A stretch of DNA of 6,950 nucleotides from Candidatus Micrarchaeota archaeon (GTDB taxonomy: Archaea > B1Sed10-29), in NCBI GenBank assembly GCA_964579265.1, contig CAZOFO010000024.1, positions 1-6,950 on the forward strand, in the 5' to 3' direction. The position numbers were made by a program. Within the stretch, counting starts at the first letter, position 1, and each line of letters begins with the position of its first letter. Of this stretch, positions 1 to 6,000 are shown in pieces.

Positions 1-3000
1 ACCCGCCTCCGACATCCTTCTATTTCTATAAAATATCGAAAATTAGAAAAAATTAAAGATTTATATTCCTTCAGTACCTGATAAGAACAAGTGATAGGAA
101 TGGATAAAAGAGAAACCAGAGTCGAGAAACTGGACATGGGAAAAGCCAGGAAAAGGCTTCGAGAGGAAAAGGAAAAAGGATCAAGATTGATAAGCGTAAC
201 CGCGGACAAGAGAAAAAACGATCACTACATCAGCTACCACTTGGATGAAGGAGAAGATGGAAAAAGTCTCATCATAGAAGCGGAACTGGATGATAAAAAA
301 GCTGAGAGAGTTACCGATATATTCGAGAACGCCGACCTGTACGAGAGAGAATGCAGGGAGATGTACGGAATAGACTTCGGAGAAGAAATGAGGAACCTTT
401 TCCTACCCGAAGGAGTCGAAGAGCCGAGCAGAGAAAAACTCGAAAAGGCAATGGAAGAGAAAGAAGAGGAGGGAAAATAGATGCACGACACGAAGATACC
501 GCTAGGACCCTACCACCCGCTAACAGAAGAGCCAGAGCAGCTCAAGATATACGTGAAAGATAAAAAGGTAGTGGACACCGAGTTCTTCCTCGGATACAAC
601 CACAGAGGAATAGAGAATATATCCGAGAACAAGAAATACGACGAAGTGCTCTACATAGTGGAAAGAATATGCGGAATATGTTCAAACGCTCACAACTCAG
701 CTTTCTCAAAAGCAGTTGAAAGAGCAGCAGGACTGGAGGCTACCGAAAGAGCCAAGAGAATAAGAAGCATCGTAGCGGAACTAGAGAGAATACAGAGCAA
801 CATGCTTTGGTTCGGAACCCAGTCACACTTCCTTGAACACGACGACCTGTTCAAGGAAACGATGGAATACAGGGAAAAAGCTCTGGATCTACTGGAAAAG
901 ATATCTGGTAGGAGACTTCACTACGGACTAGCGGATTTCGGCGGAGTAAAAGATGACATAAACAAAGAAACACAGCAAAAATTGAAGAAAAAAATAAATA
1001 AACTTAGAGAAAGAACAGAGGAAATCTATAAAGAGACAATGAGTAGAGAAGACTATGCAGAAAGATTAAACGGCGTGGCAGAACTAAGCAAAAAGAGAGC
1101 AAGAGAACTCGGAGTAGTAGGACCGGTTGCCAGAGCATCAGGACTGGAGAGAGATGCTAGAAAAGTAAACGAATACGACGCTTATCCTCTGATAGACTTC
1201 GAAGTAAAGACCAAGAAAGGATGCGACGCGCTAGCCAGGACGGAAGTAAGGCTAGAAGAGATAATAGAAGGCACCAGAATCATAGATAGACTACTTGACC
1301 TGCCCGATCAAGAGGTAAAAGGAGTAGATGAAATTGAGATAGATGAAGAAGGAAGAACAACAGCAAAAATAGAGGCTCCGAGAGGAGAGAACTTCCACTA
1401 TCTCCACGCGGGAAAGAATAGGCCAAAAAGACTGAGCATAAGACCCCCAACCTACGCTAACTTCATGGCAATACCCGAGATGACGATAGAGGAGAGAATA
1501 AAAGAGGCTCCCCTAGCAGTAATATCAATAGATCCCTGCTTCAGCTGCACTGATAGAGCTCTAATAGTGAATACCGAAACCGGTGAAGAAGAACTTCAGG
1601 ATTTCCATGACTTACTGTAAAAAAATAGAGAGTGAAAGATATGGAAAAAAAAGATAACAAACAAGAAAATAAAAAATGCAGAATCTACTACCTTGACGCC
1701 GGAGGATGTAATGGCTGCTACCTTGAATTAATAGCAACAGTCTACTCAAAATACGATCCTGATGACATAGATATAGATAAAGTTGGATCAGCGGGACAGG
1801 CAGACATAGTAATCGTAACCGGACCGGTGAACTGGAAGAACAAGGAAGAGGTTCTCGAAAAGATAGATAGAGCTCCGGAGCCGAAGAGATTGATGGTTAC
1901 GGGAAGCTGCACTATATCCGAAGGAGCTTTCCTGGGATCCAAAAACATATCCGGACCTGTAGATGAACTTAGAGAAGCAGATTTATACATTCCAGGATGC
2001 CCTGTGAGCCCGGAATCCATGATGGATGGATTAAAACAATTAGTAGATGAAATAAAAGAAGAATTAGAAGAAGGAGGCGCAGATATAGAGGAAAGTAAAG
2101 GTATAAACCTCGAGAGACAGGAAGATTTCAGAGGAGAACACATTCATGACAAAGAAAGATGTATATACTGTGGTAAATGCGCTGAGAAATGCCCTTCAGC
2201 ATCCATAATAGTGGAAAAAGAAAAAGAAGAATGGAAAGTAGATCTAGGTAGATGCCTTTTCTGCGGAAGATGTAAAGAAGTGTGCCCAGTTGACGCTATC
2301 TCTTTCTCAAACAACTTCGAGATGGCTGAGAAGGATAGAGAAGAACTTTGGAGCAAGGGAAATCCGGGTAAAGGCACGTAATGAAAACTAATATTATTTT
2401 ATCTCTTTCAATAACTTTTTCTTTAGTTTTTCTTTAGCATCCTTGATCTCTGAGGATAATCCTCCACCATAGCCCATCTTGATTGGTTTTGCACCAACTA
2501 AATAAGTTTTATCCGGGTTAATCTTCTTCTGTATTATAGATATAGGTAACCTATGAGTAGATATGGGTTTTTCAGTTTCTTTTAATTCATCTAGCTCTTT
2601 GAATAAAATTTCTCCTGGTGAGAGACAAGGTACTTTTAATGCATCTACGATGTAAAGTTCTTCTGGCTCTTCAGGAATCTTACCTATAAAAGAAACTGGT
2701 GCTGAACCGCATTCAATTAATTTAACATTGTTCATATCCTTAAACCGGTTTTCCAATTCTCTAGCAATTTTCACGCCTAGAGAATCGTCTTCTCTTAATT
2801 CATTTCCTATTCCCAATACGACTTTCATATGAGTTTTTAAATACCTAGTGACTAATATAATTGATTAAGATGTGTTTGGCAAGACCCGGAAAAGTAGTTG
2901 AAGTAAAGGAAAACTCCGTTATACTAGATTATGGAAACGAAAAAAGAGAAGCAAATACGGATTACATGGAACCAGAAAAAGGAGAGTATGTAATAGTCAA

Positions 3001-6000
3001 TTCCAAGCAAGTTATACAAAAAATTAGCGAAGAAGAAGTTAAAAGATCAATAAATTCAACTTTGAGATGAAAAAAAGAGCTGAAATGGATTCAGATAAAT
3101 ATATAGGTTTCAAAGATAGAAAATCAAAGGTTCTTTTTCTCAAATATGCCTTACCTTGCTCCGAAAATGAGGAAGAACTACTGAAGACAATAGAGAAGGA
3201 TAGAGAACCCGAAGAAAATCTAGAGGACTCCTTCTCAATGGCGGTGAATATGCTGAGGATTACGGCTAATGAAAAAAACAAGGAAAAGATAGATGAAGAG
3301 ACTATAAGAGAATATTTCTGGTTCAAACACGCGGAAATATTGAAGGAAAATAATCCAGAGAAAAAGAAAGAAGAAATAAGTGAATGCTTGGTTCTACCCG
3401 GGAAGATAATTGATGAGAAAAAAGGAAAAAACAGGACTAAGGTAAAATTAATTAACAGCGAGAGAAGAGAAGTTAATTCTAAACTACTTGACAAAGGTAA
3501 TGAAGGTTCTTGGGTAGTAATTCATAGAGATTATGCTTCAGAAGGGATAAATGAAGAGGATAAAGAAGAGATAAGAAAGTTTTTAGAAGGATTAGATTTG
3601 ATTTGATTCTCTTATTAGGAACAGTTCCAAAGTCCTTTTCTGCGACTGTAAGCCTCTGCTTCCGATTCTAAATAATCTACTTTCCTTTGGAAATCTGATT
3701 TAGTATATACTCTTGCGTAACCTTCTTCAATTAGTTCTCTGGTGAAGTCTCTTCCATTAATTTCTATGTATGCTAGAGTTCTGTTGTAGTATCCTTTTTT
3801 ACCTCTCTCCGGATCGTAGACTAATTTTACTTCCTCTCCTCCTATATTTTCTTCAGTGTAGTTAGAAGCCTTTTCAGCCCAGAGAGCAAGACAGCTCTGG
3901 TTCTCTATACCTCTGTAGTCCTCAGGGTAATTGTATTGATTAAGCTCCGGAGTATCCATCCCAAGGAATCTAACAGTTTTCAATTCCCCATCTATCCTTA
4001 TTTCAGCAGTATCTCCGTCAATAACTCTTTCCACTATTCCTATTTCCGAAGTTTTTTCATTTTCTTCAGGAACTTCTCCTAACGGACCTCCTAAATATAG
4101 GAAAGCAGAAAAAACCATGAATAGAATCCCTATTATTACTTTTTCTTTTATCTCGCTCATATTATCACTTTATATAGTTTAATCCCAGTTCTTCAGCTAG
4201 ATCCCAAGCTTTTTTTGCTTCCGATCTTTTCAGAGATCTGTTTATATCAGGGTGTTCTCTAGATTTATAGGAAGGTCTGTACTGATTCATTATATTCACT
4301 ATTACGTCTTCTTGGTAGTTTTGAGATATGTATTCCAGTATTGGTTTGGTGCAGCATTCAAAGTGATTTGGAAGAACTAGGTGCCTTATAACTAGTTCTG
4401 AATCTTGTTTTGCTAGATCGTGGTTCCTTTTAATTATTTCCCAGTAATTTTTTACTTCGCTGAGTTTCTCTCCGCATTCATTGTTCCCGTATTTCCAGTC
4501 GGACAGATATATATCGATCGTGTTTCTAAGTATATCCATTGTTTTTTCACTCATATAGAAGTTGCTGTTCCATACTACAGGAACTTCAATTTCTGATTTT
4601 TTCAGAGCTTTTAATATAAATGGTAGGTTGGGTGTGGGATCTCCTCCGACAAAATTCACGTTCTTGCAGTTGCTGGCTTTTTCAATGAAATCTGCAAGTT
4701 CTTCTACAGTTATTTCCTTTCCACTAGTTCTCCATTGACTTATTCTGGAGTTCTGGCAGTACTGGCAGTGGAGGTTACAGCCCATGAAGAAAATTGTGTA
4801 GCTAGGTACTAGGAATTTTTCCTCTCCCATGTGGCTGAATGCTGTGGAGAGAACAGGTTTGTTTTTAACCCCGCAGTACCCTTTTTCCTTCTGTATTCTA
4901 TCTACTTCGCATTTTCTTTCGCATAGATTACATTTTTTCAGAGATTCTTGTGCTCTATCTATTTTTTCTTGTAGTTTTTCTTTTTCTAGATTTTTTATCT
5001 TAGGTTCTCTTGATCCTCTTACTGTTTCTAAGTATCTTTTTATAGCTTTTTCTTTCAATTAAATCCCCGAATCAAATTTATAATTAGTTAAGGAAATTTT
5101 TAAAGGCTGTAGTCCCAGTCTCCTTTTTGTTCTTCTCTGATTCTGATAGTGGTTTCTCTCGGGTCTTTTGATTCGTATATTACGCTTCCTATTGATTCGA
5201 AGTTTCTGTCTTCTTTCAGGCAGTCTCCTGGGGACATGTCTCCTTTTTCGAACCCATCACATATTACTATTTTTTCTTCTGTGTATTTGTTCGCTCTTTT
5301 TAAATCTTCTGAATGGTTTCCTGCCACGCTAACTCCATCTACATCTAGATCTTCTGCTAGTTCAGCTGTTTTCTTGAAGGACTTCTGCATGAACTCGCTT
5401 TTTTGTTCGTGAGGCAGACTGAGTGTTACTATTGTTCCTGATCTTGGGAACTCGTCCCTAATCGCTTTTATTGGCTCTTTACCTATGAATCCTGGTATTG
5501 TGATTGCTTGGAATCCTGCTTCGTATAGTTCGCTCGCCATCCATAGAACATTTCTATCTATATCACAGAGATTGTAATCTGCTATGAAAGATACATCAAG
5601 TCTCTTTATTATTTTTTCCATCCCTAATATCCCTACTGCATCTCCGAATGATCTGTTAACTTTTACTGCTGCTATCAAATCATCTATATCCTCTATCACA
5701 TCTATAGCTGTCTGCATCATCGTATCTTGATCTAGTTCTCCGTGTAAAGGGAAAGATATATCTAGATCAAAGATTAAGTGTGTCTTCTTTTTCTGTGCTT
5801 CTTCCATCAATCTGTTCTTGAATCGGATAAGATCCACCTTTAGAAGTTTTTTATCTAATATTTTTTAAGTAGTTGGAGATTTAATAATCTACTTGTTTTC
5901 AAGTTTTTTATATAGGAATACCTATAATACCCTTGAGCTTAGGAGCATTTTTTAACCTGTAATGATTTCAAGCCTTGGTAGCTCAGCGGTAGAGCGGGTG

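Follow-up and report, generated by a model that had tools for sequence, protein, structure and literature searches.

A predicted soluble group 4 [NiFe] hydrogenase in an archaeal genome assembly lacking HypD, HypE and HypF

We analysed a 6,950-nucleotide stretch of DNA (the window) from an archaeal genome (G000) of 41 contigs and 91.45% completeness. Profile searches recovered all six ORFs at the positions, and in the families, that a first-pass annotation had claimed (Table 1), among them its three-gene operon of a NuoC-like protein, a large subunit and a NuoB+NuoI-like fusion; judged from sequence, its products make up a complete, undamaged catalytic module of a group 4 [NiFe] hydrogenase with NuoC-, NuoD- and NuoB+NuoI-like parts. 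That annotation had placed the operon start 100 nt from the contig end, which is right. This end is not an open one: the end of contig C35 overlaps window positions 1-55 exactly, and ARAGORN locates the tRNA-Met on C35 at 2309-2383. The same tRNA-Met likewise lies upstream of NuoC in two relatives, G003 and G005. Contigs C35, C12 and C3 can be linked, and both operon flanks then join ordinary genes; beyond the contig end lie the tRNA-Met and IscSU with zero membrane genes, and no membrane arm gene was found up- or downstream of the operon after linking. The G005 operon is internal to its contig, with unrelated flanks. The window also contains a radical SAM gene, absent from this place in G003 and G005, and DNA nearly identical to the window is known from soda lake metagenomes.

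Table 1. Features at the hydrogenase locus (window coordinates).
Feature	Positions	Strand	Evidence or remark
3' end of tRNA-Met(CAT)	1..14	+	operon's upstream boundary; remainder of gene on contig C35
NuoC/MbhK-like structural subunit, 126 aa	100..480	+	PF00329, E 2.5e-15
Group 4 [NiFe] large subunit, 379 aa	481..1620	+	PF00346+PF00374
Fused NuoB-like small subunit (GCNGC, GSC, PGCP) + 2x[4Fe-4S] NuoI-like domain, 246 aa	1641..2381	+	PF01058+Fer4
HycI-type maturation endopeptidase, 144 aa	2394..2828	-	PF01750, E 1.7e-16; TIGR00072 above cut-off
HypC*, 66 aa	2870..3070	+	PF01455, E 7e-16; Cys2 kept (MCLARPG)
X, DUF6390-like, 179 aa	3067..3606	+	ESM Atlas TM 0.76 to DUF6390 cluster; C-terminal HypC match

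The large subunit carries the motifs RICGICSNAH and DPCFSCTDR, with C64/C67 and C353/C356, E17, H71, the canopy arginine R301 (EAPRG) and PTY at 323-325, and has a cleavage site after R359 followed by a 20-aa C-terminal tail. These motifs are invariant or nearly so across 12 clade members, and the four cysteines, canopy arginine and tail are invariant in all 12. The small subunit has the four non-adjacent cysteines of the NuoB type, with NuoC- and NuoI-like partners present, and the Asp/Asp/His motifs of HycI can be read as REDD, VDA and THRLP. The nearest solved structures to the large subunit are HycE (7z0s, E 2e-96) and MbhL (6cfw, E 1e-94), with bit scores of 326 and 321 against 224 for the best NuoD and 78 for Frh. 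An identity with the Ni-less Ehr/MBS proteins was rejected, all four metal-binding cysteines being kept; a second large-subunit copy in G018 is in the Ehr/MBS state, its cysteines and tail lost.

Given the 20-residue tail, the HycI protease and these nearest relatives, the “Ech-type” label first applied to the enzyme has to be dropped. Group 4e Ech enzymes are described as lacking a cleavable C-terminal peptide (PMC12134894); because tail and protease are kept here, the window enzyme is best classed as Hyc/Mbh-like and not as Ech. In trees it belongs to a separate well-supported clade with no supported named sister subgroup. With E. coli hydrogenase-3 (HycBCDEFG, group 4a) and P. furiosus Mbh (group 4d) it shares the four-Cys site, EAPRG, DPCxxCTDR, a cleavable tail, the HycI protease and NuoB-, NuoC- and NuoI-like partners; unlike them it has no membrane subunits, its NuoB and NuoI are fused and stripped of docking segments, its operon includes neither a formate dehydrogenase nor a HycB-like input gene, and HypDEF are absent. 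Ech (EchA-F) has the same catalytic core, with ferredoxin the likely partner, but has the EchA/B membrane subunits and no C-terminal peptide; the window enzyme differs in both.

Profile searches of the genome gave zero matches to NuoH and Proton_antipo_M, and tblastn with relatives' real NuoH, antiporter, HypA, HypD, HypE and HypF proteins returned nothing at E<0.01, in agreement with the earlier statement that the assembly has no NuoH- or NuoL-type subunit. NuoH is found in 0 of 6 genomes of the family, versus 15 of 25 elsewhere in the phylum. The docking surfaces have gone too. The NuoI N-terminal helix/TxxYP segment, present in 10/10 arm-bearing phylum copies and 8/8 bacterial controls, is missing from 3/3 arm-less copies, the fused subunit of the window included; the NuoB “DxERxG..GSPR/K” loop is lost in 3/3 arm-less copies, and DxERxG is present in 59/59 controls. 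Both elements lie at the membrane interface, and the helix occurs in every structure solved for the complex I superfamily (PMC9474812). None of the features of energy-converting group 4 enzymes (NuoH-like anchor, antiporter-like subunits, NuoI helix, NuoB loop) was found in the window enzyme. The arm-bearing enzyme of G010 is sister to the clade (support 98/96) and shares the D-B-I order; because this sister retains the arm, the arm was lost. With the contig gap closed, the docking surfaces lost and the sister arm-bearing, the proposal that a membrane-bound group 4 hydrogenase gave rise to a soluble one is supported, and comparative genomics describes a predicted soluble enzyme whose membrane subunits and docking surfaces were lost from a Hyc/Mbh-like complex.

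Within the phylum the hydrogenases form a series from a full arm (G010, G022), through a half antiporter with NuoH (G015 type), to no arm (the window's family); G027 has a two-subunit form. Some details differ from the first-pass annotation. The full sets of G015, G016 and G023 are present, except that their “NuoL” is a half-size antiporter-like protein of 288-306 aa; the G010 locus has the order NuoD-NuoB-NuoI-x-NuoH as described and does not end there, three full antiporter subunits lying beyond NuoH; and G005 does have antiporter matches. These are on contigs of GC 0.58-0.62 versus 0.40-0.42 for its other contigs read, and are therefore probably misbinned. ATP synthase subunit I occurs in 0 of 18 genomes of the same order, of which seven retain NuoH, so lack of ATP synthase alone does not explain loss of the arm.

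Maturation genes were sought in the same genome. HypD and HypE/AIRS had no profile match, and HypF had only two weak partial matches (E 6e-7 and 3e-6), which we take to be the Kae1/TsaD and Sua5 ORFs; with the tblastn searches, this upholds the reported lack of HypD, E and F. HypA and HypB are absent as well: HypA gave a single 20-bit zinc-ribbon match, and the real HypB of G022 found only the SRP54-like ORF, over 47 aa. The claim that cobW had no match was wrong, as there are three weak ones, presumably to the SRP54-like, an HflX-like and another GTPase-like ORF. A [NiFe] large subunit is present in 20 of the 31 genomes of the phylum; the copies of G006 and G017 are distant and group-3-like, leaving the 18 with a group 4 subunit that had been counted before. 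HypD, HypE and HypF each occur in 2/31 genomes, for HypD reproducing the earlier count, and are absent from 18 of the 20 hydrogenase genomes, so that these cells, that of the window among them, would be unable to make Fe(CN)2CO. Most of the 18 nonetheless retain both CxxC motifs and HycI, the latter within the fetched locus in 15 of 16 HypD-less group 4 genomes; HypA has strong matches in 8 HypD-less genomes, HypB occurs in G022, and a HypB-like protein in G030. HypA-F are held necessary for every [NiFe] hydrogenase (PMC12134894). An enzyme without HypDEF had been proposed for the arm-less form; the absence is real, and its tie to that form is not, being common to hydrogenase genomes of the phylum.

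Two HypC-like genes had been reported. The first is indeed one (HypC*), and the second belongs to a distinct DUF6390-like family, here X. In an alignment of 31 HypC sequences, the conserved histidine (E. coli H51) is replaced by Asn in HypC*; it is lost in 9/9 copies from 8 HypD-less genomes and in 3/3 HypC-X fusions, and kept in the hypCDE copy of G018 and 18/18 HypC of control loci. X has a helical N-domain and a HypC-fold C-domain (107-178; AF2 pLDDT 91), which aligns to the HypC fold with Z 6.5 and rmsd 2.3 over 69 residues. Residues C31, H88, C107 and H153 are conserved across 151 rows, with all four in 122, and probably form a metal site. The likeness of X to the DUF6390 cluster extends over 162 residues, model against model; X itself falls below profile detection (no PF19927 match at E 0.1), and several members of its family match PF19927, a few above cut-off. 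Our literature search found no published function for DUF6390. The CPR family “fam002” (Jaffe et al.), reported to have partial hypC homology and to lie beside CPR group 3b hydrogenases (PMC7304191), may be the X family.

By a profile derived from the copies in these same genomes, and hence biased towards detecting them, X is present in 14 of the 18 HypD-less hydrogenase genomes versus 0 of the 2 with HypD; kin among the genomes are not independent. A second small-genome archaeal phylum has HypD in 20/28 genomes and X in 1/28, a test resting on one genome; that genome is HypD-less, and its X is flanked by a [NiFe] large subunit and a gene resembling HycI. Among 60 relatives scanned, X is fused to HypC (3), HycI (1) and EamA (2); in three relatives an EamA gene is linked to HypC*/X, and tblastn found no match to it in G000. 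X is missing from four of the 18, including G022 (98% complete), itself without a HypC match, so HypC*/X is not the only route. Paralogues of X occur in 4 of 11 genomes without a large subunit; this second X type is without C31 and lies at the AsnRS-adenylate kinase site.

Co-folding hints that HypC* pairs with X. The score is 0.42 versus 0.02 for the best control, at least 70% of contacts are shared between runs and partner pLDDT is at least 76; the mark is reached by 116/157 solved and 2/215 mismatched pairs, but just 18 of these solved pairs, along with the two mismatched ones, reach it at a score <=0.60. Like the HypC-HypD scaffold (HypC C2/H51 and HypD C41), the pair would combine a HypC fold bearing Cys2 with a partner having conserved Cys/His, in the carrier role of the HypC family; unlike it, HypC* is without the His, and X joins a helical domain to a second HypC fold, which has an internal Cys, and has no [4Fe-4S] motif. 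A HypC-family protein is able to carry Fe(CN)2CO (PMC8692609).

The genome encodes KorAB-like and IorAB-like OFORs, ferredoxin, an acyl-CoA ligase and IscS/IscU; neither ATP synthase alpha/beta nor an [FeFe] hydrogenase was found in it. Our best reading is of a soluble, ferredoxin-oxidising, H2-evolving enzyme in a fermenter without ATP synthase. The three-chain hydrogenase (C + D + fused B-I) would act as electron sink for a small DPANN fermenter, in which two 2-oxoacid:ferredoxin oxidoreductases would reduce a single-cluster ferredoxin and electrons, moving along the two NuoI clusters and then that of NuoB, would reach the NiFe site and leave as H2. ATP would come from the ADP-forming acyl-CoA ligase, so that ion pumping would not be needed. 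We regard the sink role as fairly probable, its partners being encoded and the electron flow deduced from them.

For maturation, we propose that HypC* would bind the apo-large subunit through Cys2 and that X, with its Cys/His/Cys/His site, would replace HypD in holding an Fe(CN)2CO unit that is already assembled. That unit probably comes from a hydrogenase-bearing host, the weakest step of the scheme. Nickel insertion would involve HypA/HypB in several relatives and be unassisted, or proceed through X, in G000; HycI would cut the tail after R359, and IscSU next door would supply Fe-S clusters. The organism is probably tiny and host-dependent, and a host-DPANN nanotube of 4.4 nm has been described (PMC11329633). 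Taken whole, a soluble H2-evolving sink supplied with host Fe(CN)2CO via HypC*/X is the best explanation, and we give it a little under an even chance.

HypC* and X could instead be a new self-sufficient maturase, making the Ni-Fe site in-house without host input, with CO/CN from another source or a simpler ligand set. The four-ligand set of X, its replacement of HypD in distribution, its fusions to HypC and HycI and the adjoining IscSU agree with this; we consider it unlikely, as X bears neither an Fe-S nor an ATP-binding motif, the absence of HypE/AIRS and HypF leaves no cyanide chemistry in sight, the radical SAM gene is not conserved in place, and G022 has neither X nor HypC. Cofactor or host Hyp proteins might also arrive by cell contact, with X/HypC* serving nickel handling or apo-protein folding: four HypD-less hydrogenase genomes do without X, X paralogues persist where hydrogenase is absent, G000 has X yet no HypA/B, and the nanotube lumen is wide enough for proteins (PMC11329633). 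We find this unlikely as well, since in G030 HypC*/X coexists with HypA and a HypB-like protein, which means that X does more than substitute for HypAB, and the loss of the HypC His points to a HypD-facing role (PMC12134894). Improbable, too, is a site without NiFe(CN)2CO, its four cysteines holding Ni only or Fe-S and its acceptor another, such as polysulfide in soda-lake sediment, as in MBS. It would suit the 18 genomes with no route to CN ligands, the near-identical soda lake DNA and a superfamily that has repeatedly changed acceptor (PMC9474812), but MBS/Ehr-type copies, like the second of G018, lose the cysteines and tail, whereas here the four Cys are retained together with EAPRG, PTY, the tail and the nickel-sensing HycI, often with HypA/B as well.

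A group 4 module without the arm had been put forward as new, but Sulfurospirillum multivorans, which has a full Hyp set, provides a precedent. Its EchEDFC is likewise soluble, with four subunits and a cluster without a membrane subunit gene, and is Coo/Ech-like and barely transcribed (PMC5357620); its bacterium is free-living and has further hydrogenases that work. The window enzyme differs in being Hyc/Mbh-like, with tail and protease, Hyp-less, the sole hydrogenase found, and under purifying selection in several species. The operon has no stops or frameshifts, and each of the six genes has a pN much lower than its pS: against G003, the large subunit has pN 0.13-0.16 and pS 0.77, similar to AsnRS (0.135, 0.625), HypC* has pN 0.125, and X has dN 0.40 and dS 2.5. 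All 8 of 8 strain differences within the large subunit are synonymous, the terminal branch of the enzyme is 0.19 versus a median of 0.28, and at least nine clade members have it intact. Such constraint makes a decaying remnant of a once membrane-bound hydrogenase very unlikely, for all that the enzyme is patchy in its family (3/6 genomes, 62-91% complete), the ancestral site is emptied in G000 and G004, and the echE transcript of S. multivorans is negligible. Least likely of all is an assembly artefact hiding arm and hyp genes in the 9% of the genome that the assembly lacks: fragmentation, the incompleteness of G003 (62%) and G005 (81%) and the antiporter contigs in the G005 bin would allow it, but both linked flanks hold ordinary genes, the docking surfaces are gone, HypD/E/F are also absent from G022, G030 (96%), G016 (95%) and two-contig G017, and the same search detects HypD readily in the second phylum.

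We suggest that the lack of HypDEF across the phylum is a stronger result than loss of the arm: hydrogenase genomes without HypDEF, yet with protease, tail and often HypA/B, point to cofactor transfer between cells or a second maturation route. It is possible, and we put it forward tentatively, that host-dependent archaea (and perhaps CPR bacteria) rely on HypC* and X to run intact [NiFe] hydrogenases in the absence of HypDEF, capturing host Fe(CN)2CO or building it by a new route, with the enzyme of the window's family also a minimal soluble group 4 form. X would offer the first clue to what DUF6390 proteins do. As for the arm-less enzyme, it is a small predicted H2-evolving catalyst, and with a natural three-chain group 4 hydrogenase one could test directly whether complex I superfamily members depend on the membrane arm for turnover.

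The hydrogenase operon of the B1Sed10-29 archaeon (genome G000) encodes an enzyme whose site residues are intact, whose membrane arm (NuoH and antiporter subunits) and docking segments are lost, and which, in a genome where HypD, HypE and HypF are missing, stands beside an altered HypC and a linked DUF6390-like protein, X. The six open reading frames and their families (NuoC-like, large subunit, NuoB-NuoI fusion, HycI, altered HypC and X) are as the first-pass annotation described them. In the large subunit RICGICSNAH, EAPRG, PTY and DPCFSCTDR are all retained, as is a 20-residue tail behind the last of them; these are invariant or nearly so among 12 aligned full-length clade members. 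Of the solved structures, HycE (E 2e-96) and MbhL (E 1e-94) come nearest to it, with NuoD well below. The label "Ech-type" is therefore wrong, and the enzyme is Hyc/Mbh-like, because group 4e Ech and 4c enzymes, unlike the G000 subunit, have no cleavable C-terminal tail (PMC12134894, section 11).

The operon is real, intact and under selection rather than decaying. Compared with the family member G003, for which synonymous sites are mostly saturated, the large subunit has a pN of 0.13-0.16 and a pS of 0.77, similar to AsnRS (0.135, 0.625), with pN/pS of 0.125/0.805 for the altered HypC and 0.22/0.80 for HycI, and a dN of 0.40 and dS of 2.5 for X. Strain differences are silent in the large subunit (8/8) and in X (1/1); both of those near the NuoC start change residues. 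Soda lake metagenomes carry this DNA, with at least half of the window's words present in 8 runs from 3 studies, 5 of them possibly the source; four DNA runs cover the operon, with no single piece across the whole stretch, and no RNA run matched among the runs listed. A contig joint skipping 1666-2041 was discounted, its short side being only 22 letters. Promoter and terminator scans were no richer than shuffles (6 vs 7.1; 2 vs 3.6), and an Rfam scan of the window returned nothing besides tRNA. The window makes up the whole of contig C24; G000 itself comprises 761 kb in 41 contigs (91.45% complete), within a phylum, probably a DPANN lineage close to Micrarchaeota, whose 31 species genomes span 0.3-1.3 Mb.

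The arm is truly gone from the G000 enzyme. Its absence, proposed when the operon was seen only at a contig end, is borne out by linked contig ends and by changes in the docking regions of NuoI and NuoB. Contig C35 matches window bases 1-55 exactly and also overlaps C12, and the far end of the window overlaps C3. Upstream of the operon lie tRNA-Met and then, on the opposite strand, an AIM24-like gene, a 100-aa ORF, an ArsR regulator, IscS and IscU; tRNA, ArsR and IscS stand in identical order in G003 and G005, and the G005 operon is contig-internal with unrelated flanks. The two-helix 100-aa ORF was dropped as a candidate anchor, having no Pfam match and being absent at that place in G003 and G005. 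NuoH is found in 0/6 genomes of the family versus 15/25 others, and the only antiporter matches in the family fall on two G005 contigs, C68 and C29 (loci L047 and L229), whose GC of 0.58 and 0.62 against 0.40-0.42 for the other G005 contigs read indicates that they are probably misbinned bacterial contamination. The N-terminal segment of NuoI, whose amphipathic helix is reported for every structure solved in the complex I superfamily (PMC9474812), is missing from 3/3 arm-less copies and present in 10/10 arm-bearing copies of the phylum and 8/8 controls; the DxERxG loop of NuoB is replaced in arm-less copies and kept in 59/59 controls. Docking segments have been lost along with the arm. The arm-bearing controls are common bacterial relatives (37-44% identity) obtained by searching metagenome and genome contigs with the clade alignment, among whose listed matches there was no further clade member; the arm-less state is known for three genomes, the related proteins P0002-P0008 being known without gene context.

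The sister of the clade, G010, has the order D-B-I-x-NuoH (large subunit, NuoB, NuoI) with three antiporter subunits (support 98/96 in a careful 30-row tree that left out the long rows G027 and G018b and the group-3-like G006 and G017; a quick 57-row tree agrees). This shared D-B-I order explains the NuoB-NuoI fusion, and in G003 the two genes are still separate. A second, independent reduction to a two-subunit group 4 form is found in G027, a long branch with only the large subunit, small subunit, HypA and HycI; the NuoB loop is lost here too, and NuoC, NuoH and antiporter have no match anywhere in this 87% complete genome. Elsewhere, G012, G015, G016, G023 and G025 have a minimal arm of NuoH and one half-size (288-306 aa) antiporter-like protein. 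The soluble form, put forward as a novelty, stands as a new variant but not as the first of its kind, as the arm-less group 4 cluster of Sulfurospirillum multivorans, in which echE is described as barely transcribed (PMC5357620), is a bacterial precedent.

The lack of HypD, HypE and HypF extends far beyond G000. Each passed the cut-off only in G018 and G019 among 31 genomes (search controls were positive in 4/14), so that 18/20 genomes with a large subunit lack all three, 16 with group 4 and 2 with group-3-like enzymes. Both CxxC motifs are present in 15/16 of the HypD-less group 4 genomes (counting G003, where each motif sits on a separate contig; in G021 a contig end truncates the gene), and HycI lies in the fetched stretch of 15/16. 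A strong HypA match is kept in eight HypD-less genomes, G022 has HypB, G030 a HypB-like protein, and in G010 HypA has an Mrp-type ATPase as its neighbour. Since HycI, HypA and HypB are retained without HypD/E/F, the maturation steps after cofactor synthesis are kept in these genomes and synthesis itself is lost. Incompleteness cannot explain the gap, because G022, G030 and G016 are 95-98% complete yet lack HypD/E/F, and the same search found HypD in 20/28 genomes of another small-genome archaeal phylum. The group-3-like large subunits of G017 (L054; a genome of two contigs, with a short 154-aa small subunit) and G006 (L055) have intact motifs in HypD-less genomes, and G018 carries a second, Ehr/MBS-like homologue without CxxC motifs.

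What accompanies the gap is a changed HypC. The HypC His has been proposed as an iron ligand on the HypCD scaffold, and Cys2 is needed to bind the apo-large subunit (PMC12134894). Cys2 is kept in all copies compared; the His is replaced in all 9 copies that come from 8 HypD-less genomes, as it is in 3/3 HypC-X fusions, and kept in the hypCDE copy of G018 and in 18/18 control-locus HypC, chosen by N-terminal pattern. A hypC-like family has been noted beside CPR hydrogenases (PMC7304191).

Protein X consists, in its predicted structure, of a helical domain and a HypC fold, and matches a DUF6390 cluster (TM 0.76); look-alike clusters are mostly from Aenigmatarchaeota, Woesearchaeota and Nanobdellota. 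Folded alone, the N-domain reaches pLDDT 81, with Z <= 5.6 to small helical domains and no clear match. Searching at E 0.001 gives 434 representatives of the family, and across 151 aligned rows C31 (82%), H88 (97%), C107 (94%) and H153 (99%) are conserved, all four in 122. Among 60 of 145 new representatives scanned, X is fused to HypC (3, N-terminal), HycI (1) and EamA (2). With a profile built from these genomes' own copies, X was found in 14/18 HypD-less hydrogenase genomes, 0/2 HypD genomes and 4/11 genomes without a large subunit; in the second phylum it occurs in 1/28 genomes, HypD-less, between a large subunit and a HycI-like gene. The type linked to altered HypC occurs in eight genomes. 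A second type, without C31, persists without hydrogenase, in G000 as well, at a conserved AsnRS-adenylate kinase site that holds the hydrogenase cluster in G010, G012, G015 and G016 and is empty of it in G000, G001, G003, G004 and G005. Structure prediction weakly suggests a complex of altered HypC with X (0.42 vs 0.02 for the control; the mark was reached by 116/157 solved and 2/215 mismatched pairs, but those reaching it at <=0.60 comprise just 18 of the solved pairs along with both mismatched ones); the runs share at least 70% of contacts, with partner pLDDT at least 76. An EamA transporter adjoins altered HypC in G025, G026 and G021. It shares 33-39% identity with the EamA half of an X fusion and is a candidate for bringing in cofactor or nickel; G000 has no match to it.

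Coordinates of features in the window and at related loci
Feature	Position	Strand	Remark
Altered HypC	2870-3070		His-less
Protein X	3067-3606		179 aa
Thermonuclease, membrane-anchored	3615-4160	-	
Radical SAM protein, PFL-activase-like	4165-5058	-	not syntenic with operon in G003/G005
OMP-decarboxylase-like protein, divergent	5100-5837	-	E 2e-10
tRNA-Thr(TGT)	5971-6099	+	55-nt intron
ThiI catalytic domain, stand-alone	6280-6858	-	192 aa
55-nt repeat	6896-6950		recurs at C3 end; two runs show a small joint; short tandem duplication at contig break probable
Second X paralogue	L059:9691-10209 = G000:C2:77690-78208		AsnRS-adenylate kinase site
EamA beside altered HypC/X	L040:5715-6707, L041:4502-5425, L050:7081-7971		fused to X in P0208, P0252
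Minimal-arm loci	L034:11092-11958, L035, L036:7044-7964, L038, L040		G013 likewise, cut by contig end
Two-subunit form, G027	L045:3205-5435		
Second large-subunit homologue, G018	L048:8744-9997		

How the metal centre is supplied can be framed from these observations. A HypC-family protein can carry an Fe(CN)2CO unit (PMC8692609), a DPANN-host nanotube with a 4.4 nm lumen has been described (PMC11329633), and we infer that the G000 lineage is host-dependent, because PMC12892359 reports its probable phylum to be without free-living genes. Fe(CN)2CO would originate in the host and would be received by altered HypC and X; the whole chain, import included, we regard as tentative, a little short of an even chance. 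A new in-house cofactor route would be an improbable alternative, ranked below import because nothing visible in X would let it produce cyanide. The radical SAM gene in the window was dropped as a CN/CO source because it is absent at this place in G003 and G005. G022 has neither HypC nor X, so the HypC-X module is not the sole solution.

A soluble, ferredoxin-oxidizing H2 vent fits the metabolism of G000, whose genome encodes a pair of 2-oxoacid:ferredoxin oxidoreductases, a ferredoxin of 58 aa, an ADP-forming type of acyl-CoA ligase, and IscS and IscU; ATP synthase alpha/beta and SufBD were not found in the genome. Ferredoxin would pass its electrons to the hydrogenase, with H2 evolved. No [FeFe] hydrogenase was found in G000 (0/5 family genomes searched). 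Subunit I of the A/V-type ATP synthase is found in 0/18 genomes of the order versus 8/13 others, and NuoH, with a membrane hydrogenase arm, persists in seven of the order's genomes in spite of the missing synthase, which counts against a simple story of arm loss.

Group 4 and 3b hydrogenases of DPANN have been reported; among these papers, maturation is touched on only by PMC10134863, briefly, and by PMC11216029, for [FeFe] enzymes. The word "maturation" is absent from the main text of PMC8407114, PMC8561730, PMC8421398 and PMC7304191. In open-access main texts we found no account of [NiFe] hydrogenases in DPANN that are Hyp-less, and no paper naming DUF6390; gene tables that reveal the gap could exist in supplements. 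While the soluble group 4 form is a new variant for which bacteria offer a precedent, what surprises, and can be tested directly, is Hyp-less maturation with an altered HypC and X.
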